64,000 nucleotides of DNA. Origin: Corallococcus exiguus (GTDB lineage Bacteria; Myxococcota; Myxococcia; Myxococcales; Myxococcaceae). A program made the translations under genes and the position numbers. The notes beneath the pieces were generated by a model. The model saw only the letters and a program-made list of their open reading frames with translations. It had not been told where the DNA came from and did no database searches. Of the stretch, positions 1,781 to 42,841 are shown one piece after another. Within the stretch, counting starts at the first letter, position 1. Each line of letters starts with the position of its first letter. The DNA lies in NCBI RefSeq assembly GCF_017302975.1, contig NZ_JAFIMT010000003.1. One strand, 5' to 3'.

Positions 1781-1783
1781 CCG

Positions 1784-5170: not shown

Positions 5171-5203
5171 CGGGAGCGCTTTCCGTCGCTGGATAAAAAT
5201 ACA

Positions 5204-5234
5204 GCTCGGGCTCTCAGAACCTGAGAGCCCGAGC
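5204..5234. terminator. Perfect 14-bp inverted repeat hairpin (gctcgggctctcag/ctgagagcccgagc), candidate intrinsic terminator
   Basis: Seen directly 34 nt downstream of the lipoprotein stop and upstream of the kinase gene. It is a GC-rich stem with a short loop and no U-tract, as is common in high-GC genomes. Confidence 0.45.
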
Positions 5235-5318
5235 GCGTTCACACGACCCGTGGGGGAGGATTCGACCCAGGTGCTTTCCAATCGTGTCGGACCGGTCTAG
5301 TAGGAATTTGGACCGCCG

Positions 5319-6977: not shown

Positions 6978-7037
6978 GGTCGTCCGGGCGCGCGGAAGCT
7001 CCAGAGCGGGGGCGCGCCCGCAATCCAAGGAGTTGTC

Positions 7038-7871: not shown

Positions 7872-7889
7872 AACGAAAGCCCACCGACA

Positions 7890-8705: not shown

Positions 8706-8735
8706 TTCCGTAGCACCGGGGAGCCCCGGGCACGG

Positions 8736-11504: not shown

Positions 11505-11642
11505 GGTGCGCTCGTATTCGGTGGGTGGCCGTACCGGAGCAATCTCCGGCAGGCCCCCATCGTGCACCAGTCGTGAGGAAGGGGACGGGGCAGCGGACGT
11601 TTCCCCATCCTGTTCCTTATGCGAGCGAACGGGCGGACGCCG

Positions 11643-12536: not shown

Positions 12537-12607
12537 GGGGTTTGCCTCCAGCGACAGCGAGATGGCGCAACAGTGCTCCCGCGTCATTCATGAGGCCACT
12601 GCATGCT

Positions 12608-13621: not shown

Positions 13622-13691
13622 CACTCGGGGGACGCGACACTGAACGTCAGTACACAGGTGGGGGAGCATCGCATGGGGGGCTTCGTGTAGG

Positions 13692-14318
13692 GTGCTCCCC
13701 ATGAATCCTGAGAAGCTTGTCTTCGCCCAGACCGTGGACGCGCTCTTCGTCCGCGCGCTGGAGAACCGCCTGACGCCAGCGTGCCGCGAGCACCTGAAGC
13801 GGGCGGGGCTGGACCTCGACAAAAAGCTGGAGCGCTCCTATTCGCTGGAGCAGTGGCGGGAATTCCTGCGAATCGCGGCGGGCCACGTCTATGGCGGCGT
13901 GCCGGCGGAGGCCGCGTACTACTCCCTGGGCGAGCGCTTCATGGACGCCTACTTCGGCACCTTCTTTGGCCGAGCGCTCCTGGGCGTGGGCCGGCTGGCC
14001 GGTCCCCGGCGGATGCTGCTGCGGGCGGACCTGGGCTTTCGCGCCGGCAACAACTTCAGTGAAATCAAAATCGTGGAGCGCAGCGCGACATCGCTGGAGC
14101 TCTGGATGAACGACGTGCTGGCGGATCAGCCGACGTTCGCGGCGGGGCTGCTCGCGCGCGCGGTGGCGCTGTGCGGGGGCTGGCGGGTGGTGGCGCTGCC
14201 GGAGGAGTTCGACGGCACGGCGGCGACGTTCCACCTGCGCTGGAGCGAGGCCTCCGCGGAAGGGGCGCTCAGCGCCACTGAGGATGGGTCCGGAGGCGAC
14301 GCTCGACCTCAGGCGTGA
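13692..14318 (+). CDS. DUF2378 (TIGR02265, Myxococcus paralogous family) protein
   Basis: About 200 aa with the pattern LVFAQTVDALF...LDLDKKLERSYSLEQWREFLRIAA typical of this myxobacteria-restricted family. Confidence 0.6.
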   Translation: MLPMNPEKLVFAQTVDALFVRALENRLTPACREHLKRAGLDLDKKLERSYSLEQWREFLRIAAGHVYGGVPAEAAYYSLGERFMDAYFGTFFGRALLGVGRLAGPRRMLLRADLGFRAGNNFSEIKIVERSATSLELWMNDVLADQPTFAAGLLARAVALCGGWRVVALPEEFDGTAATFHLRWSEASAEGALSATEDGSGGDARPQA

Positions 14319-15120
14319 GGGTGCCCCCGTGCGGGGCCCGGGAGGACGAGCGCTCCCAGCGCTCCAGCCACCGGGTCCCCAGCGGGGCGGCCAGTGTTTC
14401 ATAGCGGGTCGAGGCCACGGTGGTCTCCCCCTTGGTGCCGGTGGACACGCCGGCGCCCACGTAGAACCCCGCGAGCAGCAGCGTGACGCGGGTGGGCGTG
14501 GCCGCGCTGTAGGTCATCAGCAGGGCGCCCTCTCCGTCTTCCCGGCAGTGCCGGCGCACCCGGGCGAGGACGGCTTCGGTCCACATGTCCGGGTTGGACG
14601 CGGGTGAGAACGGATCGAAGAAGACGAGGTCCGCCAGGGGCAGCTGCGCGTCCGGCTCCAGGAAGGGCACCGCGTCCCCCAGCTTGAGGGTCCACTGGAT
14701 GCCGGGCTCGCTCCAGGCGCCGTGCTTCATGAGGCTCTCGGCGGCTTCGCGGAACGGCTGGAGGAAGGGGAAGCCCTCCGCGTCCGCGAGCGCGAGCCGC
14801 AGCGGGGCCAGGTCCACCTCGAAGCTGACGATGTGCAGGTCGCGGGCGCGGTCCGGGCCCAGTTCCCGGGCGCGGGTGAGCGCGGCGACGGCGTTGGTGG
14901 CGGCGCCCAGGCCCACGTCATGGATGACGAGCGGCGGGCCGGGCTGGCGCAGGCGGTCCGCGAGGCCGGGCTGGTCGACGTAGAGGCGCAGGGCCTCCTG
15001 CCACGGGCCCACCGCGGGATGCATGACCTCGCCATGGCCCAGGTGGCGCACGGCGCGGTGGCCGTTGCGAAGGGTGACGAGCTCGAAGTCGCCGTCGCGC
15101 GGATGGGAGGGCTCGGACAT
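14269..15120 (-). CDS. MnmC-like SAM-dependent methyltransferase domain protein (DUF752; tRNA mnm5s2U-type methyltransferase domain, standalone)
   Basis: ...DVGLGAATN...LHIVSFE...FFDPFSPASNPDMWTEAVLARV...GALLMTYSAA matches the MnmC methyltransferase domain signature (DGFAPAKNPDMW in E. coli). It was recovered as the 3' 283 codons of the 573-aa ORF, with the ATG at 15118-15120. Confidence 0.7.
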   Translation of the reverse strand: MSEPSHPRDGDFELVTLRNGHRAVRHLGHGEVMHPAVGPWQEALRLYVDQPGLADRLRQPGPPLVIHDVGLGAATNAVAALTRARELGPDRARDLHIVSFEVDLAPLRLALADAEGFPFLQPFREAAESLMKHGAWSEPGIQWTLKLGDAVPFLEPDAQLPLADLVFFDPFSPASNPDMWTEAVLARVRRHCREDGEGALLMTYSAATPTRVTLLLAGFYVGAGVSTGTKGETTVASTRYETLAAPLGTRWLERWERSSSRAPHGGTLTPEVERRLRTHPQWR

Positions 15121-15168
15121 GGGGCTCCTGGCCTGGAGGGGATGTGTGGGAAAGGATGGGTGCCTAGC

Positions 15169-16164
15169 ATGACGACTCCAGGGCAGGAACATCGGGGCGC
15201 GCTTCACGGGGAGGACGTCCGGCACGGGGAGGCTCCGTTCGAGGGCGGCCAGGTGAGGCTGTCGCTGCGCGTGGAGGCAGGAACGCGCACGGTCTTGGCG
15301 GCCGCGTGGGAGGCGTCGGTGGAAGCCTCGGTGGACGCGGGGCATCCGCTGGCGGCGTGCCTGGAGTCGCTGTGCCAGAACGCGGTGGGCATGGCGGTGG
15401 ACGTGTTCCTGCGCTTCGACGACTTCCACTTGCGCGCGGGGTGTCCGGACGGGCTGGAGGCGACGGAGGAGGCGGGGCTGGCGGTGCGGGTGTTCCGGCT
15501 GGCCTTCAGCCAGTTCCACCCTCGGGCCACGGGGCCCGCGTATCTGTCGAGCGGACTGGTGCTGGCGAAGCTGCCCCGGGGCGCGAGTCCGGAGTGGGAC
15601 GAGCCGGGGTTCTACTTCGCGCACTACTACCGCGAAGAGCTGTGGGCCGCGGCGGTGGAGGAGGCGCGCCGGGGCGGCGTGCTGGGACCGCGAGCGGCGT
15701 GTGCGTACATCGATGCGCTGCTGGCGAAGGCGGATGACACGGTGGAGCTGGACTGGCCCGTGGAGCAGGGCACGGCGACCTGGGACTGGTTGACGCGCGT
15801 GTGCCTGCCGGCGGTGACGGGGGGCGCGGAGCGGACAAGGCGGTTGCTGGAAGGGGGGTACGGGGGCGCGAGCGGCACGGGGAGCTTCCCCTTCGGGCAC
15901 CTGGACGGAGGGTTTTGGCATCCGCCGGTGGGGCTGCCGGAGCCCGAGGACGTGGGGCACGCGGAGTTCATCCTCGGGGATTTGGAGCACCTGTTGCCGG
16001 AGCTGCCGAAGGACGGCGTGTTGCTGGCCGCGCCCCGGTGGATGGCGGTGGGACAGACACAGGACTCCCCTGCCCTGCGCCGGGCGGACATCTCAAGTGA
16101 GGAGGCCGGGGGCTTCGGCCTGTTCAACGCGGCGGCGCACGACGTGGGTGAAGACGATGATTGA
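15169..16164 (+). CDS. Hypothetical protein (acidic, Trp-rich)
   Basis: Clean ORF from the ATG at 15169 with coding-like composition. The 5' part of the 480-aa track ORF was rejected. Confidence 0.5.
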   Translation: MTTPGQEHRGALHGEDVRHGEAPFEGGQVRLSLRVEAGTRTVLAAAWEASVEASVDAGHPLAACLESLCQNAVGMAVDVFLRFDDFHLRAGCPDGLEATEEAGLAVRVFRLAFSQFHPRATGPAYLSSGLVLAKLPRGASPEWDEPGFYFAHYYREELWAAAVEEARRGGVLGPRAACAYIDALLAKADDTVELDWPVEQGTATWDWLTRVCLPAVTGGAERTRRLLEGGYGGASGTGSFPFGHLDGGFWHPPVGLPEPEDVGHAEFILGDLEHLLPELPKDGVLLAAPRWMAVGQTQDSPALRRADISSEEAGGFGLFNAAAHDVGEDDD

Positions 16165-16897
16165 TGGGCGCCTCCTGGGTGGGCTGGTGGCTCTGATCTG
16201 TCTGTCGTGCGCTTCGGGTCCAAGGCAGTACGCGCAGACCACGGACTCCGCGACCAATGGATGTCTGCGCAATCCCACCTGCTACACGCAGCCGGGGGAT
16301 GAGGCGTTCCTCCCGTGGGTGGACAAGGCCGTGAGGGCAGCGGCTTCCGCGGGAGCCACGATGAAGCTCCTGGAGGCGGCGGATGTGGCCCGCATCGAGC
16401 ACCTGTTGGTGGAGTGCGCCAAGGAAGCGGACTTCATCGTCAATGAGCGTGAGTACGGCGAGGGGAAGTATCCGGACGACAAGGAGTGCTTGCGCGTGGT
16501 TGGCCAGGACAAGGACGGCAAACCCATTTGGCGGCAAGCAGAGCTGGGGAAGTTGAAACACGCGGTTGCCTTCGCATGCGTTCAGCGAGAAGTCCGTCGA
16601 CTCTTTCCCGATAACGTCTCAATCGAGCCTCGCTACGGGACCTCCCCTACGTCAGGTGGCCCCACAATGACGAACATATGGAAGGGCTCGAAGAAGCCCG
16701 ACATCGTCCTTCATGCCACTGGCCAGCCACTCCAGATCCAATGCATTTTCGACCTCAAGTTCCCGTGCACGCTGAAAAGCAAGGGCGACCCCCTCTCCAA
16801 CGACGGAACCCGTGAACAAATGTCCCGCTACGCGGAGCTGAGAGGAAAGTGCAAGCCCGCGATCATCACGCCCCAGTTTGGAGTCTTGCGTGAATAA
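16157..16897 (+). CDS. Cys-rich lipoprotein of unknown function (candidate exported toxin-like protein)
   Basis: MIDGRLLGGLVALICLSCASG carries a lipobox, and the mature protein has at least 10 Cys. GC is locally lower, and the gene is translationally coupled to the next gene (overlap GTGAATAA). Confidence 0.6.
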   Translation: MIDGRLLGGLVALICLSCASGPRQYAQTTDSATNGCLRNPTCYTQPGDEAFLPWVDKAVRAAASAGATMKLLEAADVARIEHLLVECAKEADFIVNEREYGEGKYPDDKECLRVVGQDKDGKPIWRQAELGKLKHAVAFACVQREVRRLFPDNVSIEPRYGTSPTSGGPTMTNIWKGSKKPDIVLHATGQPLQIQCIFDLKFPCTLKSKGDPLSNDGTREQMSRYAELRGKCKPAIITPQFGVLRE

Positions 16898-17894
16898 GTA
16901 TCCGCTCCTTCAACACTTCTCCACGACGCTCCCCCGGGTCCAACTGGTCCTGCGCATCGTGTTCTATCTGCCGCATGACCACCGAGTGTTGGCCCCCGTC
17001 CTACGACAGGTCCTCAACACCTATCTTGGATTCATTGCGGCCAGTGGTGGGGCACTGACCTCTGGCTATGATCCCGACATCAGTGAGGATTCCTTCCCAC
17101 TCACTCCTGACACCTGGGAAGAGGTCCACACGGAGTTGGAGAAGGCTCGCTTTGGGCCTCTGGAGGACATGGACCAGGACTCCTTCTGGTTTTGGACCCT
17201 GACCAAGAGGAACTACGACACATGGGTTCTTCTCAAGGGAGGACATTCGGAGCCAGATGGCTACGAATTCAGTTTCGAGTCTCGGATCCCATGGAGAGAA
17301 CCCACTTCCGAGCACAGCGTTCTGAGCGTGAAGCTCCCAATAAGCTTCCTGGAGACGCAGGGGCCCGAGAAGGCCTTTGCACTGGCACGGTCCCTGGCGG
17401 AGCTTCTTCCGTTCTCCACGGGCCATGCCGGGCTGTCGCTCTCATTCACGCGCGGGAGGTCGAAGCTCCTTCCCCTTCTCAAGGAGCAGCTGTCCAGGCA
17501 TCCCGGCTGGCACGTTCCGCCTCCGCTGACGTGGGGCTTGGGACCGTGGATCGACGACGTGCACTGGCTGAACTTCCTGGGCCCTCCCCTGCTCGAAACC
17601 GTTGGCGGCATCCAGGCGCTTCGCTCGCACCTGAGCCATCCGGAGACCACCGTCCAGGAGCTCACCGGAGGCCGTGCCCTGATCAGCCTGGGCGCCGAGC
17701 CGCTCGCGGGGGACACAAAACGGGGTGAGACACTGCCGGCGTATCGCGAACTGGCCCGGTTCCTGGAGCCCTGGCTCCTGCCCTTCCCCCACGTCAACAC
17801 CTGGGACGGCTACACCGACGACGAGGCCCGCCTCTGGTGGCGCCGCTTCCTGGAGGGCCCTCCCGAAAAGATATCCGTTCCACGGGATGGGTAA
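16890..17894 (+). CDS. Hypothetical cytoplasmic protein coupled to upstream lipoprotein (candidate immunity-like partner)
   Basis: A GTG start overlaps the upstream stop by 8 nt. There is no signal peptide, and it shares the lower-GC segment. Confidence 0.55.
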   Translation: MNKYPLLQHFSTTLPRVQLVLRIVFYLPHDHRVLAPVLRQVLNTYLGFIAASGGALTSGYDPDISEDSFPLTPDTWEEVHTELEKARFGPLEDMDQDSFWFWTLTKRNYDTWVLLKGGHSEPDGYEFSFESRIPWREPTSEHSVLSVKLPISFLETQGPEKAFALARSLAELLPFSTGHAGLSLSFTRGRSKLLPLLKEQLSRHPGWHVPPPLTWGLGPWIDDVHWLNFLGPPLLETVGGIQALRSHLSHPETTVQELTGGRALISLGAEPLAGDTKRGETLPAYRELARFLEPWLLPFPHVNTWDGYTDDEARLWWRRFLEGPPEKISVPRDG

Positions 17895-30687: not shown

Positions 30688-31116
30688 TCTTTCGGCACTC
30701 CAGGCAGTGCCTACGCCGCCCGTTTCCGGTGCTCCGGAAGCGAGGCGGCGTTTTCGTGCGCGTGTCAATTCTTCCTGTACGCTGTCACCCAGCTCAACGT
30801 ACGAAGGCACTTGGAGGAGAGAGTTAAAGAACAGGTTGTCCTCACCACCACAGCGAGGCTGCGCGAGGTGTCGCTGGTAAATGCAGGTGAAGGAGCGCTG
30901 GTGGGCGTACAGGCGGCGACAGCCGAAGGGGCCGGTGCTCTGCGAGGTGGTTCATGCGCAAAGGCTTGAGGCCTGTGCCGCACTGCGCGAGAGCGGGCTC
31001 CGTGGCTTCGTAACCACCGGGTGTGAGACTCAAATCTTTCCTGTAGGGGCGGGCTTGTAGATCTGCAACGCTTCCGCAACCCGCCCTCTCCTGGGACGAG
31101 GTGAAGGAGCCAAGCA

Positions 31117-32052
31117 ATGCCTGACGGAAGACTGAAGCGCCTCGCTGACATGAAGCCGCTGGCGGATCTGTCTAGCCCCCTGACTCCGCCAAGTCTGGAG
31201 GCTGAGAGGAACCACGAACCGGGGTACTTCAAGGGACGCCGAGGGTTCAACCCGAACTTCATCCCTGAATTCCAGGTCGAACTCCCAACGCTATCCAAGT
31301 CGCTCAGCGACGACGCGGCGCCGCTAGTCACTGACGCGAACAAGCACGTCCTCGACTACGAGAACTTCTCGCTCGTGATGTCCAAATCGCGGCGGCTGGC
31401 CATCTACACCGCGTGCAACATCGAAGGCGAGCAGAGTAAGCGCGACAAGGTGGCGCGCCAGGGCAAGGACGAGTGGTTCTATGACCTACGCATCAGCCCT
31501 CATCACCAGATTGGCGAAGACCTCTACCGAGACAACGAACTCGACCGCGGTCACCTCGTCCGCCGCGAGGACCCCGTCTGGGGAGACAAGGCCGTCCACG
31601 CCAACGACGACACTTTTCACTTCACCAACTGCTCGCCGCAGCACTCGGGCTTCAACCAGAAGACTTGGCTTGGGCTGGAGAACTACATACTCCAGAACGC
31701 CCGACTGCACGAACTGAAGGCCACGGTCTTCACGGGCCCCGTCTTCACCCCCAATGACCCACTGTATCGTGGCGTGCGGATTCCCCGCTCGTACTGGAAG
31801 GTTGTCTCCGTCTTCAGCGAGGAGCAACGTTCGGCAACCGCCTATGAAATCAAGCAGGACCACCTCCTGGAAGGGCTTGAGTTCCTCTACGGCAAGTACA
31901 AGACGCACCAAGTGAGCATCCACAAGGTCGAGCGTATGACGGGGCTCAAGTTCGGCCCACTCTCCACCTACGACGGCTTTTCGAACGAGGAGGCCACCGT
32001 CGGCTCCGAGGTCAGCATGCCCTTGTCGGACTGGCGCGCGATCCGGATTTAA
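31117..32052 (+). CDS. Non-specific DNA/RNA endonuclease (Endonuclease_NS / Serratia-EndoG-like, beta-beta-alpha-Me, DRGH motif), no signal peptide
   Basis: LDRGHLVRRED is the catalytic DRGH motif, and the FTNCSPQ and Asn metal site lie downstream. There is a strong RBS (gaaggag) 6 nt before the ATG. GC is lower than in the flanks. Confidence 0.85.
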   Translation: MPDGRLKRLADMKPLADLSSPLTPPSLEAERNHEPGYFKGRRGFNPNFIPEFQVELPTLSKSLSDDAAPLVTDANKHVLDYENFSLVMSKSRRLAIYTACNIEGEQSKRDKVARQGKDEWFYDLRISPHHQIGEDLYRDNELDRGHLVRREDPVWGDKAVHANDDTFHFTNCSPQHSGFNQKTWLGLENYILQNARLHELKATVFTGPVFTPNDPLYRGVRIPRSYWKVVSVFSEEQRSATAYEIKQDHLLEGLEFLYGKYKTHQVSIHKVERMTGLKFGPLSTYDGFSNEEATVGSEVSMPLSDWRAIRI

Positions 32053-35000
32053 GCCCTCGCGGGGAATCCCCTGATCGCCACCAGGGAGTGGAGGAACTCG
32101 TCCCAGTCTTGGAGAGACTCCGCGAACCTCTGGGCTGCGGAGTCCTCCGTTGCATAAGTGGAGACATGAACCAACTCGAGAAGTTGCCCACACTCGTCCG
32201 CGTGATTGACGAGCTCGCGTGCTTGGTCCTTCAGGCGCATGCGGAAGAACGTTTTCATCCTATCGGCAGGAAGAAACTTCTCGGCGAGTGTGGGCCATCT
32301 CTTTCCCCCTCCCTTAAGGAGCGCGAAACGCGCGGGCACCCTCCACTCCACATGCCGCGCCACCAGCAGCCTTTTCACGACCGTGACGGTGGCCGCTGAC
32401 TCCTCCATCACGAGTGCGAATAACCACTCGTGGAGGGCGTTCACCAGTTCCGGGGGCACCTGATCGAACGTGACGAGGTCTGCCTTGGACGATGTGTTGA
32501 TGCTGAATGGCGTCCTGACGAGCTTCAGCAACTGGTGAATCCGGTCCGCCCACCCCCTAGCGCCAAAGTCCAGGAGCGTCTCGATCGTGAATTGTTCGCC
32601 AGCATTTAACGACGTCAGCGGCGCTGCCCGGAAGTACTCGGCAAGCAACGAACGAACGTCACCGGGAGCAAAGAGAACGAGTCGACGGAGCAGCCCAGGG
32701 GCCTGACGCGACACCATCCGCCGAAGCTGATTGGCGACATGCAATGCGCTGTCCGCCAATGAGGGACTACTCAAGCCAGCCCGCCGTAACGCGCCCACTT
32801 GGCCCGTGAGGCATTCGAGCAGCGCCATCTGGGTTTCCCGCTCGTGCGCCAGACTGGCTCCTTCATCAAAGAGTTTCTCGGACCTCCGATCCCCCATCTT
32901 GAACAGCAACTCCGCATGGGCCCGGATTAGTTGAAGGCGCTCGAACCCGCTCGAATGTGAGTCTGAATGACCGCGCTCGTACGCCTCCAACGCCATGTCG
33001 AATTCCGCCATGTCGGAGAGTGCCGTACCCAGCAGCCTGCTCCATTCAGCCCCTTGACCGGATGGAGCCCGACTTGTGAGCAACTCGCGCACGAACTCGG
33101 GCTTGCCACGGCGCATGTCCTGCTCGGCCCGCTGCTTAGCGTACTGAGTCCAAACGCTGGAACTCAGCATCTCGCGCTCCTCCGGGTCCAGCACTTGGCC
33201 GAGCTTGGCCTTAAGAAAGGCGCGCGCCTGTGGCTGGAGGTCGGGGACCGCAGTCTTAAGGAGAGGCTCTGCATCCTCCGACCAACGCAGCTCAGCACGG
33301 TCGATCTTATCCAAGAGCAGATGATGGTAGAGTTCTTCAGCATGGTTGGCTGGACCTACGCGCTCAGCGTAGTAGGCGGCCGCGCGCTCATTGATCTGCC
33401 TGAACTTTCCGGGGTCGGAACGCTCCAAGTCGTCGCGGATCAACCCCAGCATAAAGGTCCGGATATCGCGACGATGCACGAGTACGTCGCCTCTGCGCGT
33501 CACCAGCGCGACTTCCTTTGCCATCTTCTCGAAGAGGGCGCGTGCTTTGACCTCGTCCACGTCTTTCAAGCCGCAAGGCTCCGCAAGCACCTTGGAGATC
33601 AGCTCGGGCGTAAGCTGCCGGAGGATTAACCCCGGATGTGCCAGTCGGGCGACCTCTTTGTCCACGTGAGAGAGAGTCCGGGTGAAGAGCTGCACCGCGA
33701 CATTCTCAGAGTCGTATTGTCCGAGCACGCGGGCGAGCCCCCCCCGCCTCACGCCGACGAGTTCCCCCATCACCAGCTCCGACTCGGAAACTCGTGTGAG
33801 TTCCTTGCGGACGAGGCCCACTGCCAGCTTGAGAGAGAGTGGGCTCGTCCCCACGTGAGACACTATCTCGTCGAGCATCTCTCGTGGCAGCGCCAGCCTA
33901 TTCTTCAGGAACTGGACAGCGGACCGCCGGTCCAATCCCTTGAGCCAAAACCCCTCGGCACTAGGCTCCGCAAGAGGAGCCCGACCGGAGATGACAACCC
34001 GCAGTTCCCCCCAGTCTCCGTTGTCGCTAAGGGTCTGCAACATCGAGAGAACCTCCGCCACGTCTCCATCCCCCGCGCGCTGCACCTCCTCGAACGTATC
34101 GAGAACAAGGAGGAGCGGTCTTCCGTCCCGAGTTAAGGGACGTACGGCGTTGCGCAACTGGCGCGCACCCTCATGCACAAGACGTGGGTCTCGCACCACC
34201 TCCTCCACATCAATGCTGGCGAACTCGGAGGAGCGGGCGCTCCGGTGTCGCTCGCGAAGCAGCCTCTCGAAGCGTTCGCGCTGCCGCCCCCCAAAGCTCT
34301 TGAGTTCCGTCCCGAGATGCGGGAACTGAAACGCAAGCTGTTGCGCCATCTCCTGCAAGAGGGATATGGGCTGGCGTGGCAGAAGGGTCGCCCGATCAAA
34401 GTCAAGGTAGACGAACGGAAACCGGCGCTCCGGATCCTGACGCGCATGTTCGACGAGAAACTGCGCCATCAATGTTGATTTGCCGATGCCCCCTGCCCCA
34501 TAGACAACAAAAGGTTGATAGTGAGAGTCGGCCCACCTCCGAACGGTCCGCACTAAGGATTTCAGCTCACGGCGTCCCCAGCCAGCCCAGGACTCAGGAG
34601 GCTGCACACCAACGTAGTCACTAAGCTTTCTCAGCTCTGTCGTGCGGCCAGCGAAACCCTCTCGAAGCAGCTCATCGAAGGGCTTGAGGATCTGCGCGAA
34701 CCCGAGCTGCTGGCGGACCCGCTCCGGGTTCGGCATCTCGACCGGTGTGCCCTCCAACCATTCACAAATCACTGCAGTCTTCGCAAGTTCGTCGACACTC
34801 TGCTGTTGGATCGGTGGTGCGGAACCATTGAGATATTGAGACAGTGCCTCCGACAGCTCGTCATCCGAGGCCGAGCTGCCCATGCGGCCCACCTCCAAGC
34901 GGATCTCCTTGGCTGACAGGGACCGCAGGACCTCCTTTCGAGGCGCTTCCTTGAGCATCCATCGCCGGTACCCCCGACGCGTGGTCACCGTGCTCTCCCT

Positions 35001-35234
35001 TAGGAGGCGGTCTAGCACCCCTCGTCGATGTTCCATCGATAGCTGCGGGGGCAAGAGCTGCGTTGGGTCGAAAGTACCGACCAAGGCGGCGCGCTTGCGC
35101 ACGGCACCATAGAGGTCGTCCACGACTCCCGCCTCCGGCAGGGCGAACGACTTTTCCAGTGTGCCGCGTATCGCCTCTCGCAGTTCCTCCGGAATCAGAG
35201 ACAGCGCTTCGTCAATGGGGCTCTTGCCTGCCAT
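32049..35234 (-). CDS. STAND/NB-ARC-like P-loop NTPase with approximately 230-aa N-terminal helical domain and approximately 550-aa C-terminal helical (TPR-like) repeat sensor region
   Basis: Walker A is VYGAGGIGKSTL and Walker B is RPLLLVLDTFEEV, followed by a GxP-like segment. There is a long Leu/Ala/Arg-rich helical C-terminus. A GAGGA RBS sits 6 nt upstream of the ATG, and the gene is the last of a three-gene operon. Confidence 0.8.
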   Translation of the reverse strand: MAGKSPIDEALSLIPEELREAIRGTLEKSFALPEAGVVDDLYGAVRKRAALVGTFDPTQLLPPQLSMEHRRGVLDRLLRESTVTTRRGYRRWMLKEAPRKEVLRSLSAKEIRLEVGRMGSSASDDELSEALSQYLNGSAPPIQQQSVDELAKTAVICEWLEGTPVEMPNPERVRQQLGFAQILKPFDELLREGFAGRTTELRKLSDYVGVQPPESWAGWGRRELKSLVRTVRRWADSHYQPFVVYGAGGIGKSTLMAQFLVEHARQDPERRFPFVYLDFDRATLLPRQPISLLQEMAQQLAFQFPHLGTELKSFGGRQRERFERLLRERHRSARSSEFASIDVEEVVRDPRLVHEGARQLRNAVRPLTRDGRPLLLVLDTFEEVQRAGDGDVAEVLSMLQTLSDNGDWGELRVVISGRAPLAEPSAEGFWLKGLDRRSAVQFLKNRLALPREMLDEIVSHVGTSPLSLKLAVGLVRKELTRVSESELVMGELVGVRRGGLARVLGQYDSENVAVQLFTRTLSHVDKEVARLAHPGLILRQLTPELISKVLAEPCGLKDVDEVKARALFEKMAKEVALVTRRGDVLVHRRDIRTFMLGLIRDDLERSDPGKFRQINERAAAYYAERVGPANHAEELYHHLLLDKIDRAELRWSEDAEPLLKTAVPDLQPQARAFLKAKLGQVLDPEEREMLSSSVWTQYAKQRAEQDMRRGKPEFVRELLTSRAPSGQGAEWSRLLGTALSDMAEFDMALEAYERGHSDSHSSGFERLQLIRAHAELLFKMGDRRSEKLFDEGASLAHERETQMALLECLTGQVGALRRAGLSSPSLADSALHVANQLRRMVSRQAPGLLRRLVLFAPGDVRSLLAEYFRAAPLTSLNAGEQFTIETLLDFGARGWADRIHQLLKLVRTPFSINTSSKADLVTFDQVPPELVNALHEWLFALVMEESAATVTVVKRLLVARHVEWRVPARFALLKGGGKRWPTLAEKFLPADRMKTFFRMRLKDQARELVNHADECGQLLELVHVSTYATEDSAAQRFAESLQDWDEFLHSLVAIRGFPARA

Positions 35235-35241
35235 GGCGTCC

Positions 35242-37092
35242 TCAGCTCAAACCCGTGGCGAACGCGGCGACTCCTCTCGCCAGCGCCTTGGAGAACGGCT
35301 CATCCTGGAGCTTGTTTGCACTCGCCATCATCACGAGGCCAGGCGCTATCTGGCTCAGCAGCGTGCGCGGAGTCTGCTTGCCGTGATGTTCCACATAACG
35401 CGCAAGGTACTCCGCCACCTCGTCGGAGCCGGGCGCCCGGGTGCGATCCACTTCCACGAGCGAGGCGAGCACCGTCAAGAGACTCGGTGGCCCGCCGATG
35501 AGGAGCCAGCGAAGTGCGGCGAGATGTGGCACCTCTCGCAATAACCGCACCAGGATGTCGAGCGTCTCGTCGTTCACGAACGTCTTCCGGTTGAAGTTAT
35601 CCAGCGCAATCCAGATCGAGAAGGATCCATTCACCTCCGCCGGGTAGCGGAGTGCGAATGCCGCAGTGAACCAGTCGAATAGGAGGGTGCTCGCCCAGCG
35701 CGCAGACTGACGGTCCACGGGTCGAGCTGGCGCGCCCTCCACCGGCAGTTTCAGGTCGCGTGCCAAGTCCATCAGGAACGCGTCAGGTGCCTTGTCCTGA
35801 ATCGCCGACATATCGTAGTCCATGACCACGTCCGGGCGCCCGGAGAACAGCCCTTTCATGATGTCGATGGAGAACGAGCACCCCGAGTCGTCATCACCTT
35901 CCACCACCAGGATGCGCTTTGGTGAGTGCGCCGCTCCCATTGTCCAGAGGATCTGCTGGAACTCAATGCGACCCAGAACTGGTGCCCCGGACGGCAATTG
36001 CCAGAGCGGCACGAATCCAGGAAGGTCCTGAGACTCAAACCCACCCTTCGACTGGATGTGGTCGCGGATCAACCAGATGGGTACCCCCTGGTTTAACTGC
36101 TGGTTCTGCACTTCCGCGTGGTGGAGCGCGACAAGCCCGAACCGGATATCGAAGCATGGTGCGCCGGAAGCCCCCTTCATCGTGTTCACGGCGTAGCGCA
36201 ACCGCGCTTGGCGGGTGTCCATGGCCTTGAACGGTCCAAAGGCAATGTGGAGCGCATGACCCGCCGGGTGCTGCCCGATGACCAGCGGCTGGTCCGGTTC
36301 GAGCGTCATGGTCGTGGAGGACCCGGCAGGGAACTCCACCCAACCGCGCTCCTGCCCCCCACCCGTGCCGACGGGCGCCCTTCCCACGGGTTTGGCGAGG
36401 TTGAGCACCGCGTAGTCCAGCAGCGTCAGGCAGTCCGGTGGATTGGGCAGTTCCAGGACAATGCCGTCTTCCGGGTGTCCCGGGCTCATCGGTCCCAGCC
36501 AGTCGTCCCGCAGCGCCACGGCTGTTCCCGGGAGCAGCTCAGTCCCATCCGCGAGAGCGACGTAGTCGAAACGGCATCGGATCTTCTCTCCGACGCTCGG
36601 CAGGGGCGCCCCCTCCGCGTCGAAACACGTCGCGATGACGTGATAGGCTGTGAGCACGCGATCCGGCGCGATGAGCACACCGGTTCCCATCGCATTCGCT
36701 TCCACCTCAATCCGGCAGATCTGCTGCCCGCGCTTCTGCATCTGGGCCGAGAACACAGTCCAGGGCGCCATGGGTCCGTTGTAAGTGATGAGGCTTTGTA
36801 GGGGAGAGGCGTCGGCAGCCTGAGTCCCCAGCCGCGACAGGAATTGCATTAGCCTGGGCGTCTTAGGAGCATCTCGCAGCAGATAGGCGATTAGCTTAGC
36901 AGTGGCCCCGTTGAGCGTCACCCAATCAAGCAGCACCCCCGGCCCGGATTCCTCGGACGCGCCGGGCGCGATGACGTCCAGGCTCTGCTTGAACCACATC
37001 TCGATGAGAGCGCGCAGCTTTGGGCCTTCCAATTCTGCGGACAGGATGGAGGCCAGCTCGGTACGTTCCTGAGGGGTGAGCGCCAGTTGCAT
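35242..37092 (-). CDS. Three-module protein: N-terminal small helical domain (EAD-like) + trypsin-like serine peptidase + C-terminal domain of unknown function
   Basis: His motif is GTGVLIAPDRVLTAYHV, Asp is in DYAVLNL, and Ser motif NTMKGASGAPCF is GDSGGP-like. The roughly 100-aa N-terminal helical module is MQLALTPQERTELASIL...LRALIEMWFKQ. The C-terminal approximately 280 aa have no recognisable motif. The gene lies 9 nt after the upstream protease gene. Confidence 0.75.
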   Translation of the reverse strand: MQLALTPQERTELASILSAELEGPKLRALIEMWFKQSLDVIAPGASEESGPGVLLDWVTLNGATAKLIAYLLRDAPKTPRLMQFLSRLGTQAADASPLQSLITYNGPMAPWTVFSAQMQKRGQQICRIEVEANAMGTGVLIAPDRVLTAYHVIATCFDAEGAPLPSVGEKIRCRFDYVALADGTELLPGTAVALRDDWLGPMSPGHPEDGIVLELPNPPDCLTLLDYAVLNLAKPVGRAPVGTGGGQERGWVEFPAGSSTTMTLEPDQPLVIGQHPAGHALHIAFGPFKAMDTRQARLRYAVNTMKGASGAPCFDIRFGLVALHHAEVQNQQLNQGVPIWLIRDHIQSKGGFESQDLPGFVPLWQLPSGAPVLGRIEFQQILWTMGAAHSPKRILVVEGDDDSGCSFSIDIMKGLFSGRPDVVMDYDMSAIQDKAPDAFLMDLARDLKLPVEGAPARPVDRQSARWASTLLFDWFTAAFALRYPAEVNGSFSIWIALDNFNRKTFVNDETLDILVRLLREVPHLAALRWLLIGGPPSLLTVLASLVEVDRTRAPGSDEVAEYLARYVEHHGKQTPRTLLSQIAPGLVMMASANKLQDEPFSKALARGVAAFATGLS

Positions 37093-37101
37093 GGGTAATC
37101 G

Positions 37102-38274
37102 TCAAGGTACGAAGTGCAGGCCGAATTCCTTGAACCTCGCCTCAGCAATCATCTTCGCCATGAGCACAGCCTCATTTTGGCTGAGTTGGGTTCCCCGAAA
37201 GTGAAGCCCCACTACCTTATTCGTGGCTAGCCGCACCACGCACGAGCCAGATGAGCCCTTGAGCGTACTGCAATCGTGTTGCAGGGAGCAGGTGGACGCA
37301 TCCAGCGCTGTGATGACGCCTGGCGCTAGGCGCTTGCGTCCGTAGATTCCCCCAAAAATCTGTTCCAGGACCTCGGACTCGTGCGTGTCGTCGAAGCCTG
37401 GATAGCCAATCGTGTACACGTGGTCGTCGCTTGTGCGAACCTCGGCGTCATTCGAGGCGATGGGGAGCGGGGCCGGAAGCGTCTCACCGGCCGCGTTCCG
37501 GGTCTCGACCTCCAGCAGGGCGAGGTCCGGATGACCCGCCGCGCCATCCTCCACGTGGAGGATTCGCTTCACCTCGAACTCCAGAGTCTTCGCATTCTGC
37601 TCCTCGACAAGGAAATCGACCCATACGCGCGTTCCCTCGTGCAAATTCCAGCCATCCCCAGACTTCTTCCCAAGATGCGGGTCCACCACATGGCGGTTCG
37701 TCACGAGGACCCCGGAACCTGCGACCCAGGCCGTTCCAATGCCCCTGCCATTTCCTCCCTTCGATCCGAAGTACACCCGGCCCACGCTCTGGAGGGTGCG
37801 CTTGATCTTATTGCGGTTCAGGTCGAGCGCGAGGTGCTCCCAGCTCTTGTCCAGCGGCCCATTGAAGTCTCCCTGCTGGATGAGCATTGAAGGCCGGCCC
37901 GTCAGGCGGACGATGGCTTCCAGTGAGGCGAGCTGTGGCAGGGTGAGAGCTGCCCGCGTCCCATCCTTTGAAATCTCCGCGAGCGCGGTCGCCGCAGTCC
38001 GAACGAGCGAGACTCCCTTCGCTGTGAGTTCCTTCTCGGTCTTGCCCCGAACCCCGTCCACGCATACCAAGTCCAACAGGAGCGCCGTCTTCTGCGGGTC
38101 GTTTTTAACAGCCTCCGCGAGTTCTTCAGCACGCTTAGAGGACAGCGCCCCCTGGGCCACGGTCTCCTCAACGGGAGCGCCAGCGGCTTCCAGCGACTCC
38201 ACTGTTCGACCGCCCAAAACGTACATGGCGCGCGCTATGAACTGACTTGGCTCAAACAGGCCATTGTTTCCCAC
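37102..38274 (-). CDS. Trypsin-like serine peptidase with approximately 170-aa N-terminal helical domain
   Basis: His motif is GTAWVAGSGVLVTNRHVV, Asp is in HPDLALLEV, and the Ser motif is TLKGSSGSCVV. It is the first gene of the island operon. The listed start is a GTG at 38274, with an alternative ATG at 38226. Confidence 0.75.
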   Translation of the reverse strand: MGNNGLFEPSQFIARAMYVLGGRTVESLEAAGAPVEETVAQGALSSKRAEELAEAVKNDPQKTALLLDLVCVDGVRGKTEKELTAKGVSLVRTAATALAEISKDGTRAALTLPQLASLEAIVRLTGRPSMLIQQGDFNGPLDKSWEHLALDLNRNKIKRTLQSVGRVYFGSKGGNGRGIGTAWVAGSGVLVTNRHVVDPHLGKKSGDGWNLHEGTRVWVDFLVEEQNAKTLEFEVKRILHVEDGAAGHPDLALLEVETRNAAGETLPAPLPIASNDAEVRTSDDHVYTIGYPGFDDTHESEVLEQIFGGIYGRKRLAPGVITALDASTCSLQHDCSTLKGSSGSCVVRLATNKVVGLHFRGTQLSQNEAVLMAKMIAEARFKEFGLHFVP

Positions 38275-38307
38275 ACTGCCCCCGTTGCAAATGGCTCACA
38301 TGCGAAG

Positions 38308-38532
38308 ATGACATATCCGCGCCACATCCCAAAGCGCGGAGTCGTGGCGCCGATGGAGGACCGATTCTCTCTCTACCTCGTCGTCCAGAAACAGCCTGAT
38401 GGCTCCGTGACGGCATTCATCCGCCCCCAGAGCGGAACTTCTCACCCATTCGGCGCAAGGTGGCCACCGAGCTTAAACGACTGGTGGCTCAGAAGCCGGA
38501 TGCGACGGTGCGCGAGGCATCAGTGGGTATGA
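38308..38532 (+). pseudogene. Decayed internal fragment of a paralog of the serine-hydrolase gene at 41090-42841
   Basis: Nucleotides 38335-38440 align to 41466-41570 at roughly 85% identity (VAPMEDRFSLYLVVQKQPDGSVTAFIR versus VAPLEDRFSLYLVVQKQPDGSVKAFIR). No N- or C-terminal remainder of the gene is present. Confidence 0.65.
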
Positions 38533-38541
38533 TGCACGGCC

Positions 38542-39984
38542 ATGTACCCGAGACGCCGTCTTCTGGCCCGTGGACCGTGGCTGTTTGATCTCAGACCGCA
38601 TCAGCTCACCGTCTTCCACGGTGCCGAAGGCGTGCGCCGGGAGGTCAGTGGAGACGTGCCGAATCCACCGACCGCGCCCGTGGTGCTCGCCGCGCTGGAT
38701 GAAGCAAAGTACGTCTGGGTGGGATGCGGGGATCGGCGTGCCTTCTCCGTGGGGGCGAGCGCTCCCGTCCAGGCCTTTCCGAGGGAGTGCTTCGATCTAA
38801 TCTCTGATGGGAACCGGCTCATCGGAACGGAGGTGGACGGCGCCCTCAAGCTGAGCACCCTCTTCACGACCGATGGGTCCGGGCAGCGATGGGAGACCAT
38901 GACCTTGCTCAAGCCCGTGTCCGCCAGGCACGGGTACGGATATAGCGAGGGGCGCCCCCACCGTCAGTCCCCTGATGGGGCGTTCCTCGACACGAGCCCC
39001 TTTGGCATCACTGTCGTGGAAAAGGGCCGAGGCCGTGTCTACGTGCTTCGCCCGGGCGCGGCTCAGCCAGAGGGAGCGCTCCAGGTGGAGCCGGGCCATG
39101 AGCAGGACATCTGGCGGGCCCTGGCCACTCCTCACGGCGTGCTTCTCCTGCTCGTCATCAACTACCGGCAGACGGTGCTCCTCCACTTCGTGCTCGACGG
39201 CACCTTGCTCGGCTCCATCCCGGCTCAGGACGATGAGGACGATGAGGATGATGAACTGACCTGGGGCGGTGCCGGGGTGTGCGTCCTCGACGCGGACCGG
39301 GCGCTCCTCTTCGTCCAGGACAAGGTCCTCCTGGTGTCCCTGCCCGGGCTCCAGGTGATGGAGACGCTCGCGGGGGAATGGCCCCGCTTCGTGTCCGTGA
39401 CGCCCGCAGGGGCTGATCGGTGGTGGGTGGGCCCCGAGGACAGTGACGCGCTCTTCCTGCTCACCGCGGAGCCCGGACACCCCTTGCGCCTCGACGCCTC
39501 GAACCGTCCGGTGAGCCCGGGCGCGCCGCTCATGCACGTGGGCTACAAGACGCCCGCGATCCACTGGACCGAGTACATTTCGGCGCCGCTGACCGTTTCC
39601 GCTCCCGTGACCGAGACGTGGCGGGCGGTGGTACGCAATGACGGGACCGCGTGTGAGGCGGTGCGGATCCGGGTGTCCGGGGTGCTCGTCGGTGCTCGCG
39701 CGGTGGACGTGAGCGTGCGGTATCGCGGCCAGCCGCTCCCGATGGTGGAGGAGTTCCGCGTGAACGCCGTCGGCGTTACCGCTGGACTGGAGGGAGGGGC
39801 CACCGCGGAGCTGGAGGTGAGCTTCAAGCCTCGGGGCGAGGGCTCAGGACCGCTGACCATCACCGTCGAGCCGTGCTCCTGGCAGTCGCAGGGCAAAGAG
39901 TGGCAGTGGGACAAAGAGGAGCCTCGCGTCCTCGCGGTGACGGGTCATCCAGCATCCGCCCAGTTCCTTCTCACGGTGGAGTAG
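38542..39984 (+). CDS. Hypothetical protein (beta-rich, no signal peptide recognised)
   Basis: Long ORF from an ATG with coding-like composition and an acidic DDEDDEDDE linker. Confidence 0.5.
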   Translation: MYPRRRLLARGPWLFDLRPHQLTVFHGAEGVRREVSGDVPNPPTAPVVLAALDEAKYVWVGCGDRRAFSVGASAPVQAFPRECFDLISDGNRLIGTEVDGALKLSTLFTTDGSGQRWETMTLLKPVSARHGYGYSEGRPHRQSPDGAFLDTSPFGITVVEKGRGRVYVLRPGAAQPEGALQVEPGHEQDIWRALATPHGVLLLLVINYRQTVLLHFVLDGTLLGSIPAQDDEDDEDDELTWGGAGVCVLDADRALLFVQDKVLLVSLPGLQVMETLAGEWPRFVSVTPAGADRWWVGPEDSDALFLLTAEPGHPLRLDASNRPVSPGAPLMHVGYKTPAIHWTEYISAPLTVSAPVTETWRAVVRNDGTACEAVRIRVSGVLVGARAVDVSVRYRGQPLPMVEEFRVNAVGVTAGLEGGATAELEVSFKPRGEGSGPLTITVEPCSWQSQGKEWQWDKEEPRVLAVTGHPASAQFLLTVE

Positions 39985-41089: not shown

Positions 41090-42841
41090 ATGACCCGGTA
41101 TCGCTTCCTTGGGCTTCTGCTGGCGCTGCTTCCGCTCCATGTCGGCGCTGTCCCCATTCCCGCGGAGCAGTTGGTGGGCATCTGGGGCGGTGAGCGCGTC
41201 CTCGGGCCTCAGGTTCGCGGAGAGCTGACACTGGTGCGGGCTGGGAACTCCTGGCACGCGCGCATCGCAGGCGTCGACGTCCCGGCCCGGGTCGAGGGTC
41301 GGAAGGTGTCCGTCATCTTCCCAGGAGGCGAACTCCGAGCGACGTTGGCGGAGAACGGGCAGAGCATCACGGGCCACTGGATCCAGCCGCGTGTGCTCAT
41401 GAGCGGCATGAAGTTCGCCACTCCCGTGGAACTGCGCGCGCTTCAGCCGGGTGTCTGGCGCGGCAACGTGGCGCCGCTGGAGGACCGGTTCTCGCTGTAT
41501 CTCGTCGTCCAGAAGCAGCCTGACGGCTCCGTGAAGGCGTTCATCCGCAACCCGGAGCGGAACTTCGGCAACCGGATGCTCTTCCGTGTCGACCTCCAGG
41601 GCCGCACGGTCCGGCTCACGTCCACCAAGGACAACACCCAGATCGAAGGCACGTTCGACGCGGAGTCCGGACGGCTGTCGCTCCCCTACCCTCCCTTCGA
41701 CACGACGTTCGACTTCACCCGCCGGGACCGGTCGCAGGCCGTGGGGCTCTACTCCCGCACGCCCGCTCCCGGCCCCTACGCCTACCAGAAGCCCATCGGG
41801 GAGGACGATGGCTGGACCACGGCATCCCCCGCCGACGTCGGCATGGACATCCAGCCGATCCAACAGCTCGTGCAGCGCATCCTCGACCAGGAACCGAGCC
41901 CGGAGTCCGTCCCCGCCATCCAGGGGCTGCTCATCGCGCGCCACGGGAAGCTCATCGTCGAAGAGTATTTCCAGGGCTTCGACAAGGAGCGCCCCCACGA
42001 CCTGCGCTCCTCCTCCAAGTCCTACGCGTCCCTGCTGATTGGCATTGCCCTGGACCAGGGTGCCCCCTTCACCGTGGACACGCCCGTCGCCTCACTCTTC
42101 CCCGAGTACAAGGGCAAGCTCTCCCACCTGGACGCGCGCAAGCGCAAGCTCACCGTCGCGCACTTGATGACCATGGCGACGGGCCTGGCCTGTGACGACG
42201 ACAATCCGGATTCACCCGGCAACGAGGACCGGCTCGAGGACTCCGTACCGGATTGGTACAAGTACACGCTGGACCTCCCCATGGTCCGTTCTCCCGGCGA
42301 CGGGAAGGCCGTGTACTGCTCCGCGAACATCAACCTGCTGGGCGGCGTCCTCCGCAACACCACCCGCACCTGGATCCCCGAGTTCTTCACGAAGAACGTC
42401 GCCACGCCCCTGCAGATGCGCGGCTACCACCTGGACCTGATGCCCGACGGCGAGCAGTACCTCGGCGGCGGCATCTACATGCGCCCGCGCGATGCCCTGA
42501 AGCTCGGGCAGCTCTACCTCTCCGGTGGCACTTGGAACGGGAAGCGCGTGGTCAGCCAGCGCTGGGTGGAACGCTCCGTCGCGAACCAGGCGACGATGCC
42601 GGACGGACGAACCTATGGCTACACGTGGTGGCGCCATGAGCTTCGCGTCGGCGACCGCGTGTATTCGCAATACGAAGCCAGCGGCAACGGTGGCCAGCTG
42701 GTGATGGTCGTCCCGGAGCTGGACCTTGTCGTGCTGTTCACCGCGGGCAACTACAACCACGTCGCCATCTGGCGGAAGTTCCGCGAGGAACTCCTGCCTC
42801 GATACATCATGGCCGCGGTCTCCACGCCCCCGCGGCCTTGA
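41090..42841 (+). CDS. Secreted beta-lactamase/transpeptidase-family serine hydrolase with N-terminal extra domain
   Basis: There is a signal peptide and the SxxK motif SSSKSY. A YxN-like motif and a C-terminal beta-lactamase fold (GYTWW...GNGGQ) are also present. Confidence 0.8.
   Translation: MTRYRFLGLLLALLPLHVGAVPIPAEQLVGIWGGERVLGPQVRGELTLVRAGNSWHARIAGVDVPARVEGRKVSVIFPGGELRATLAENGQSITGHWIQPRVLMSGMKFATPVELRALQPGVWRGNVAPLEDRFSLYLVVQKQPDGSVKAFIRNPERNFGNRMLFRVDLQGRTVRLTSTKDNTQIEGTFDAESGRLSLPYPPFDTTFDFTRRDRSQAVGLYSRTPAPGPYAYQKPIGEDDGWTTASPADVGMDIQPIQQLVQRILDQEPSPESVPAIQGLLIARHGKLIVEEYFQGFDKERPHDLRSSSKSYASLLIGIALDQGAPFTVDTPVASLFPEYKGKLSHLDARKRKLTVAHLMTMATGLACDDDNPDSPGNEDRLEDSVPDWYKYTLDLPMVRSPGDGKAVYCSANINLLGGVLRNTTRTWIPEFFTKNVATPLQMRGYHLDLMPDGEQYLGGGIYMRPRDALKLGQLYLSGGTWNGKRVVSQRWVERSVANQATMPDGRTYGYTWWRHELRVGDRVYSQYEASGNGGQLVMVVPELDLVVLFTAGNYNHVAIWRKFREELLPRYIMAAVSTPPRP

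Follow-up and report, generated by a model that had tools for sequence, protein, structure and literature searches.

The window analysed here is a 64,000-nucleotide stretch of the Corallococcus exiguus contig NZ_JAFIMT010000003.1 (RefSeq assembly GCF_017302975.1), and the subject of this report is a four-gene cassette within it that encodes two trypsin-like proteases, a STAND NTPase and a non-specific nuclease. The minus strand carries the genes of protease 1, protease 2 and the NTPase, packed in this order with spacers of 9 and 7 nt. The nuclease gene converges on them from the opposite strand, and its stop codon overlaps that of the NTPase in the TTAA at 32049-32052 (Table 1). All four open reading frames (ORFs) are full length, free of frameshifts and aligned end to end with their homologs. 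The coordinates, spacers and shared TTAA given in a preliminary description of the window were confirmed at the ORF level, and the Walker A, Walker B, DRGH and protease His/Asp/Ser motifs quoted there are all present.

The cassette occupies a variable island downstream of a conserved ABC-F gene. DNA synteny with Corallococcus relatives, as followed by blastn, is lost at ~30769-30775 and returns at ~38516. The drop in GC and the A/T-richer third codon positions noted earlier are borne out: the island has a GC content of 0.60-0.64 compared to ~0.70 in the flanks, and the GC content at third positions (GC3) is 0.72-0.81 for the four cassette genes against 0.902 ± 0.052 for the 37 other ORFs of the window. 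The ABC-F gene is also low in overall GC, yet its GC3 of 0.914 is host-like, which places this gene outside the island. None of 80 Myxococcaceae species has any of the four cassette genes within 10 kb of the ABC-F ortholog, so that the presence/absence pattern is that of a strain-specific element and not of core genome. The three cassette proteins deposited at NCBI (MBN8471196-8) each stand alone in their own 90%-identity cluster in a collection of ~15 billion proteins. Altogether, the segment is a strain-specific insertion, most probably acquired horizontally.

The NTPase consists of a helical N-terminal domain, a NOD with the Walker A motif GAGGIGKST and the Walker B motif LLLVLDTFEE, a divergent region of helical repeats and a small C-terminal domain. 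Pfam recognized AAA_16 (40.7 bits) and NPHP3_N (32.8 bits), both over the cut-off, whereas the N-terminal domain searched in isolation gave no Pfam match. The whole length of the protein lacks any signal-peptide-like or transmembrane-like hydrophobic stretch. Full-length relatives, at 37-41% identity, number four or five among the 632 homologs, and the rest are mostly EAD1-Trypsin_2-STAND fusions of ~1300 aa. The N-terminal domain and the NOD are best conserved, with 42-55% identity to close homologs and 42-50% for the N-terminal domain alone, compared to only 25-33% for residues 701-944, the most divergent part, as expected for a sensor region. A profile of EAD1, an effector-associated domain (EAD), found its best match in the NTPase at the extreme C-terminus, with weak significance (E 4.7e-4 for the C-terminal domain alone). 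The structure model of residues 945-1061 reached a pLDDT of 85.1, with generic helical bundles among the remaining fold matches. The NTPase is thus predicted, mainly from this model, to end in a second CARD-like death-fold domain.

Other assignments of the NTPase were examined. For the bNACHT class, the PF05729 NACHT profile scored 24.9 bits, under its cut-off of 26.7, and this class was rejected. The resemblance to Avs systems put forward in the preliminary description did not hold, as the NTPase has no Avs/AVAST match among PADLOC or NCBIfam profiles. The only Avs matches in the cassette are those of Avs1b to ~30 residues of protease 2 (PADLOC, E 9.3e-4 and 14.6 bits; NCBIfam, 11.9 bits, the cut-off being 1500).

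Protease 2 comprises three modules, which are common to its 12 full-length homologs. The central peptidase matches Trypsin_2 at 5.3e-11 in Pfam, and its triad H151/D226/S309 is invariant in these homologs. The N-terminal module alone gave no Pfam match; its profile aligned with the Pfam-EAD1 N-termini of shorter homologs over 91 columns (hhalign 98.7%, E 3.6e-16). Profile similarity thus identifies this module as a divergent EAD1, and structure modelling predicts a CARD-like death fold for it. The C-terminal domain, previously described as ~280 residues of unknown nature, indeed exists, and is now recognizable as a degenerate STAND NOD-like P-loop module: its ~250 residues aligned with the NOD of the neighbouring NTPase over 233 columns (hhalign 95.1%, E 3.1e-8). 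At the Walker A position it has DSGCSF, with a cysteine replacing the lysine, in addition to a Walker B-like motif IWIALDNF. Distant homologs keep GxGK[ST] at this position, and several close ones have an arginine. The order of protease 2, as read from these alignments, is therefore CARD/EAD1, trypsin-like peptidase and degenerate NOD. No relatives of protease 2 were returned from GTDB species-representative genomes and the metagenome scan yielded one marginal fragment, which indicates that its close clade is very rare.

Protease 1 matches Trypsin_2 at 4.4e-15 in Pfam, its triad H195/D250/S342 is invariant among homologs, and no signal-peptide-like or transmembrane-like hydrophobic stretch was found over its length. 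The PADLOC model PDLC03010, named ‘nacht’, matches protease 1 at 4.9e-16 and leaves the NTPase unmatched. Translation from the GTG at 38274 differs from the deposited sequence and is absent from the collection of ~15 billion proteins, and the closest relatives align from about residue 17-20; M17 is possibly the true start. An exhaustive HMMER search gave 2602 representatives after clustering at 50%. All ten tested relatives of 610-700 aa are Trypsin_2 + Endonuclease_NS fusions, and further relatives are double-trypsin proteins, one double-trypsin protein with a nuclease, and one trypsin protein with PLD. Judged by these fusions, protease 1 and the nuclease of the window are the two halves of a usually fused module. 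Protease 1 is the free-standing counterpart of the peptidase half in protease-endonuclease fusions of the type of Caulobacter crescentus LypC.

The nuclease belongs to PF01223 Endonuclease_NS (E 1.3e-49; residues 73-280, 31333-31956), with the key residues intact, namely DRGH at 143-146, N180 and E188, and the PDB sequence search retrieved EndoG/NucA structures. In agreement with the earlier reading as a signal-less enzyme, its N-terminal ~70 residues have no signal-peptide-like or transmembrane-like hydrophobic stretch. NCBI places the start at M12 (31150, 300 aa), yet the upstream R8 and L9 are conserved among homologs, and the start codon is uncertain. The subfamily is large, with 2201 matches of ~50% identity across phyla that keep DRGH, N180 and E188. 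Residues 41-291 are 47% identical to the C-terminal nuclease half of the protease-nuclease fusion P0367, and the protein is 70%, 69% and 48% identical to the operon-terminal nucleases of L001, L086 and L003, respectively.

Three N-terminal helical modules had been raised as possible EADs. This assignment survives for protease 2 and fails for protease 1 and the NTPase. In profile comparisons, none of the protease 1, NTPase and nuclease N-termini was significantly similar to EAD1 or to either of the other two (all E > 0.07), so that three related N-terminal adaptors can be rejected. Searches of PDB sequences, made with the four proteins and the CARD-like-domain profiles, returned only generic protease and EndoG entries and no bacterial CARD entries (9frr, 8ss1). 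In addition, a BFVD fold search with the CARD model for phage CARD-only proteins gave no significant match.

Comparison of related loci tied the nuclease to the other three genes (Table 1). It follows the homologous operon co-directionally in three other loci, and the expectation that it is part of the system is supported by this linkage to the same operon in independent loci. The linkage is conserved, yet not obligatory. The inverted, convergent orientation in the window, compared to the co-directional order of homologous operons, is a local rearrangement. At L002 a gasdermin gene adjoins the same three core genes, which ties this clade to gasdermin-type CARD-NLR systems.

Some of these loci have further features of their own. 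At L002, a protein of 721 aa (3773-5938) joins the gasdermin domain to an alpha/beta-hydrolase domain, and the NTPase (9058-12345) has a PG_binding_1 match. Genes for a Dcm methylase and Vsr, as well as a large FtsK-like gene, adjoin the Archangium locus L085, which either has lost its effector or represents a three-gene form of the system. At L087, a nuclease of 56% identity and a Peptidase_S8/P_proprotein gene form a pair next to two TIR-domain genes, an NLR being absent, and this pair is possibly an independent defence module. At L091, a convergent 214-aa ORF of no assigned family overlaps the 3′ end of the nuclease homolog (60% identical; 9001-10580) by 4 nt, tail to tail as in the window, and could encode an inhibitor or reflect a chance arrangement.

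Table 1. Features of the island in the window and gene content of related loci.
Feature	Position	Strand	Description
Variable island segment	30776..38515	.	between conserved ABC-F gene (ends 30687) and conserved 480-aa gene (38542-39984)
Nuclease, putative effector	31117..32052	+	signal-less DNA/RNA non-specific endonuclease, Endonuclease_NS / NucA-EndoG type, 311 aa; PF01223
NTPase	32049..35234	-	NLR-like STAND NTPase, 1061 aa, four parts; Pfam, motifs, homologs
NTPase, N-terminal helical domain	34590-35234	-	aa 1-215
NTPase, NOD	33945-34589	-	Walker A 246-254, Walker B 374-383
NTPase, divergent helical repeat/sensor region	32403-33944	-	aa 431-944
NTPase, predicted C-terminal CARD-like (death-fold) domain	32085..32357	-	aa ~960-1050
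Protease 2	35242..37092	-	candidate initiator protease, 616 aa, three modules
Protease 2, CARD/EAD1-like domain	36811-37083	-	aa 4-94
Protease 2, trypsin-like peptidase	36043-36720	-	aa ~125-350 (H151, D226, S309)
Protease 2, degenerate NOD-like P-loop module	35245-35976	-	aa ~373-616
Protease 1	37102..38274	-	390 aa (374 aa if from M17, 38226); Trypsin_2
Protease 1, family-specific N-terminal region			aa 1-170, conserved motif LEAIVRLTGRPS
Protease 1, trypsin-like peptidase	37150-37764	-	aa ~171-375 (H195, D250, S342)
Rearrangement scar at right island border, outside the system	38334-38441	+	109 nt duplicated from within the serine-hydrolase (beta-lactamase-family) gene 41090-42841
L001, L086			protease 1, protease 2, NTPase, nuclease, single direction; nucleases 69-70% identical
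L089 (Methylorubrum thiocyanatum)			S8+trypsin, protease 2, NTPase, nuclease
L003/L004 (conjugative element)			protease 2, NTPase, S8+trypsin, 60-aa ORF, nuclease
L002			gasdermin-hydrolase gene (Bact_GSDM) adjoining protease 1, protease 2, NTPase
L085 (Archangium sp. metagenome-assembled genome)	4934-11399		protease 1, protease 2, NTPase; nuclease and gasdermin absent nearby
L090			EAD1-trypsin, nuclease (73% identical, closest), convergent trypsin
L087 (metagenome contig; nuclease deposited for Nitrospira tepida)	9001-12163		nuclease and S8 protease, beside TIR genes
L088, L091			nuclease solitary among metabolic genes; 49-60% identical
L005, slot between ABC-F and 38542-gene orthologs	11716-16645		
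L010, same slot	1719-10216		
L011, same slot	11702-14489		
L016, same slot	1723-4946		

Altogether, the segment is most probably a strain-specific, horizontally acquired defence island that carries one complete CARD-NLR-type system, equivalent to the ‘System 3’ of Kaur et al. plus a STAND NTPase. The idea of an NTPase-dependent conflict system with EAD-coupled trypsin-like peptidases is thereby upheld: protease 2 is EAD1-like, and the relatives of the NTPase are dominated by EAD1-trypsin-STAND fusions.

By analogy with characterised relatives, we propose that the STAND NTPase would act as the sensor, whose fast-diverging repeat region would bind the trigger, most likely a phage protein, upon which the NTPase would oligomerise in an ATP-dependent manner. 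Protease 2 would then be recruited via CARD/EAD1 docking onto either the N-terminal domain or the C-terminal CARD of the NTPase, and its degenerate NOD-like domain may co-assemble with the NOD ring of the NTPase. Induced proximity would switch on the trypsin-like domain of protease 2, which may act, directly or via protease 1, on the module of protease 1 and nuclease. This proteolysis, which may take place after Glu or Asp in view of the similarity to V8-like proteases, would release or activate the nuclease to degrade cellular and phage nucleic acid, leading to abortive infection. The trigger, the order of the proteolytic steps, the zymogen status of the nuclease and the phenotype are all inferred from the characterised relatives.

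A more specific version is a two-tier, apoptosis-like cascade, which we regard as conceivable and rather unlikely in its entirety. Here the NLR platform would recruit protease 2 as the initiator by CARD contacts, with its pseudo-NOD inserted into the NLR ring; the initiator would cleave protease 1 as the executioner, which in turn would free the Endonuclease_NS zymogen, in analogy to caspase-9, caspase-3 and CAD. Such a cytoplasmic zymogen would, if it exists, be a novelty in the His-Me finger family. As the usually fused protease and nuclease are split in the window, each cleavage step is separately testable, and so are the proteolytic order and the zymogen question.

Several points weigh against the assignment to a CARD-NLR-type system or against parts of the mechanism. 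The likeness to the Lysobacter, Pedobacter, Azospirillum and Caulobacter proteins is one of predicted fold and architecture only, and the structure models of the two adaptor domains were built on shallow alignments of 18 and 8 sequences. A PADLOC run had been suggested as a check, and PADLOC v2.0.0 (2023; without a CARD-NLR model) and NCBIfam found no system-level match for the cassette: in PADLOC, only PDLC03010 matched on protease 1, besides the marginal Avs1b on protease 2. The remaining points concern the nuclease. Its inversion precludes co-transcription with the operon, and members of its subfamily are also solitary among housekeeping genes (L088, L091), so the nuclease is not intrinsically dependent on a protease or an NLR. 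Moreover, nuclease catalysis by LypC is dispensable for lysis (PMC13236601), which implies that the nuclease may not be the sole or main killing activity. Given the dispensable LypC catalysis and the solitary nucleases, the zymogen step is the weakest link of the mechanism.

Four other explanations were considered. The same machine might have been co-opted for a host function, either regulated self-lysis or DNA degradation in development or predation, or the release of phage-like particles. LypABC of Caulobacter crescentus, with the same domain layout, indeed serves to release gene transfer agents (GTAs) by GTA-dependent lysis, is repressed by CdxB and lies outside any defence island (PMC13236601), and such systems are enriched in multicellular bacteria, myxobacteria included (Kaur et al. 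2020, PMC7159879; for the EAD principle also PMC8195603). However, the absence of the cassette near ABC-F in 80 related species, the singleton clusters of three of its proteins, its foreign codon usage and the other defence-like genes housed by the same slot in relatives make a core developmental role unlikely, and we consider a host function improbable.

Alternatively, the nuclease might be an independent neighbour of a three-gene protease/NTPase system whose real effector is proteolysis. The gene is encoded on the other strand and requires a promoter of its own; solitary homologs of 49-60% identity sit between metabolic genes, in Archangium (L085) the three core genes are present without the nuclease, and the dispensable catalysis of LypC points the same way. 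By contrast, the nuclease is the last gene of the homologous operon in L001, L086 and L089 and comes after it in L003/L004, its closest relative at L090 is flanked by EAD1-trypsin and trypsin genes, and relatives of protease 1 are repeatedly fused to the same nuclease family. The nuclease gene also has an atypical GC3 of 0.81 and sits inside the non-syntenic segment. An independent nuclease is thus quite doubtful.

That the cassette is a decaying, non-functional remnant is very unlikely. It could be argued from the inversion of the nuclease relative to L001 and L086, the cysteine in place of the Walker A lysine of protease 2 and the gene fragment at the right border. Nevertheless, the ORFs are intact from end to end, as are both protease triads, the Walker A and B motifs of the NTPase and DRGH/N/E of the nuclease. 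The degenerate P-loop is a family trait, as an arginine replaces the lysine in several close homologs, and LypA is devoid of Walker motifs and nonetheless required; the border fragment also occurs in L016, a relative without the island. Finally, the reading of the NTPase as a MalT/AfsR-type STAND regulator with a housekeeping role, its neighbours being unrelated, is effectively refuted: although STAND NTPases include transcription activators and HHpred with LypB also retrieves MalT (Banks et al., PMC13236601), Pfam at E <= 0.1 gave no DNA-binding output domain (LuxR-type helix-turn-helix, OmpR/BTAD) in the window NTPase, its homologs are dominated by EAD1-trypsin fusions, and it is not conserved at the locus in relatives.

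The slot downstream of ABC-F is a variable hotspot in Corallococcus. In four Corallococcus genomes, the slot measures 2.8-8.5 kb from ABC-F to the 38542-gene ortholog and is filled with other cargo, part of which is defence-like (DUF4041-T5orf172, DUF3800 and AAA_21-methyltransferase). L011 carries DUF4041-T5orf172 and DUF3800, L005 a Kelch/Big_7 (Ig) protein and an AAA_21-methyltransferase, and L010 an insert of 8.5 kb that includes a second ABC-F 3′ end (7072-7446). This second end and a 94-nt repeat of window positions 30664-30753 in L005 hint that recombination takes place where ABC-F ends. The island itself showed neither direct nor inverted repeats at its flanks, nor any recombinase-like signature, tRNA genes not being included in the scan. 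Likewise, no sigma-70-like promoters were found there, and terminator-like sites were at chance level. The slot could be mined in Corallococcus for further systems.

At the right border, the decayed serine-hydrolase fragment of the preliminary description proved real but smaller, as only 38334-38441 is copied. The copy has 83-86% DNA identity to orthologs, with 30 aa matching at 90%. The island-free L016 (C. exercitus) has a similar hydrolase copy upstream of the gene orthologous to the 38542 gene, which indicates that the copy is older than the island. Elsewhere in the window, the only other clearly atypical genes are two adjacent ORFs of 266 and 338 aa at 16097-17894 on the plus strand (GC3 0.76). 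The second is Pfam TsiV (type VI immunity against VRR-NUC toxins; 6.2e-40) and the first has no Pfam match; the pair may be an orphan toxin/immunity islet.

The arrangement had been presented as uncatalogued, which proved incorrect, for its architecture is already found in the CARD-NLR family, in LypABC and in System 3. In Lysobacter enzymogenes, the CARD-NLR operon comprises a gasdermin, protease 1, the CARD-protease 2 and an NLR-like STAND ATPase, the last beginning with a helical domain that is uncharacterised and ending in a CARD-like domain; most homologs have an endonuclease or phospholipase gene in place of the gasdermin, and defence requires the ATPase, the protease and the CARD (Wein et al., PMC10312443). 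Further members are a phospholipase-endonuclease operon of Pedobacter rhizosphaerae and three-gene operons of Azospirillum (PMC10312443). The trigger of the Lysobacter and Pedobacter systems is RIIB of T-even phages, and removal of the C-terminal CARD of the ATPase was auto-activating in Lysobacter. Similar to these operons, the window has two consecutive trypsin-like protease genes followed by a STAND ATPase, and the CARD-less protease 1 lies directly upstream of protease 2 with a 9-nt gap. The second protease has a predicted N-terminal CARD-like death-fold domain of ~90 aa, and the ATPase has a helical N-terminus without a family, C-terminal repeats and a predicted C-terminal CARD-like domain. 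A putative killing effector adjoins the operon as well, here the Endonuclease_NS abutting the ATPase. In contrast, the effector of the window is free-standing, placed after the ATPase and inverted, and protease 2 has an extra degenerate NOD-like module, which is not known from the Lysobacter protease. At the sequence level, the adaptor domains show no detectable similarity to bacterial CARD domains of solved structure, which they resemble in predicted fold only.

Compared to LypABC of Caulobacter crescentus, which DefenseFinder recognizes as CARD-NLR, the correspondence extends over all four proteins. LypA consists of a CARD, a peptidase and an ATPase domain without Walker motifs and is required; LypB (CCNA_00580) consists of an N-terminal domain, which is bound by the CARD of LypA, an ATPase and helical repeats; and in LypC, a trypsin-like peptidase is fused to a NucA/EndA-family endonuclease (PMC13236601). 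The domain order of LypA matches protease 2, LypB matches the NTPase, and LypC matches protease 1 plus the nuclease, a spacing of 34 residues between the catalytic His and Asn being shared by LypC (H471/N505) and the window nuclease (H146/N180). The two systems differ in that LypC is a single polypeptide, the counterparts of which in the window are encoded by two genes at opposite ends of the cassette, and in that the A-B-C order is replaced by protease 1, protease 2, NTPase and inverted nuclease.

System 3 of Kaur et al. (2020) combines trypsin peptidases with a NucA endonuclease in one operon or as a fusion, with EAD1, an S8 peptidase or a Death-like-trypsin-STAND protein in some variants. 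It was described computationally, mainly from alphaproteobacteria, and proposed to be a proteolytic cascade that deploys the nuclease (PMC7159879). The window likewise has a NucA-type nuclease with trypsin-like peptidases, one of which appears to carry EAD1, and S8 subtilase variants occur among its relatives (L003, L089). Protease 2, with its putative death fold, trypsin-like domain and degenerate NOD, is comparable to the Death-like-trypsin-STAND protein. In line with the EAD principle, the EAD1 of protease 2 is accompanied by a second predicted death-fold domain at the NTPase C-terminus, and their pairing is inferred. The window example differs in being myxobacterial and in having a full-length, active-type STAND NTPase together with the protease-linked degenerate one.

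A mechanistic precedent for the release of the nuclease comes from Hachiman, AVAST and canu, in which a trypsin-like protease unmasks indiscriminate DNA cleavage by a separately encoded pro-nuclease of metallo-beta-lactamase (MBL) fold under an infection sensor (Tuck et al. 2025, PMC12799240). These pairs resemble the window in combining a trypsin-like protease with a separate nuclease under a sensor, whereas their MBL nuclease is not homologous to the His-Me finger Endonuclease_NS of the window, and their protease is fused to the sensor. A gated MBL pro-nuclease/protease pair was accordingly rejected for the cassette, the window nuclease being Endonuclease_NS by Pfam and matching EndoG/NucA structures.

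Overall, the cassette shows every architectural feature on which the CARD-NLR, LypABC and System 3 descriptions are based. As this kind of system was predicted in 2020 and shown to be anti-phage in 2023-2026, that of the window is real and not a new type. The CARD-NLR family is present in ~0.35% of sequenced bacterial genomes (PMC13236601), and the window cassette is a rare myxobacterial member of this known, partly characterised family, adding a Myxococcota example to its taxonomic reach. The four genes, whose current names are ‘trypsin-like peptidase’, ‘ATP-binding protein’ and ‘DNA/RNA non-specific endonuclease’, can be understood as a single CARD-NLR-type immune system, in which each domain other than the N-terminal region of protease 1 has an assigned function. 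What distinguishes this member is its naturally split, inverted effector module, in addition to the degenerate NOD on the CARD-protease.

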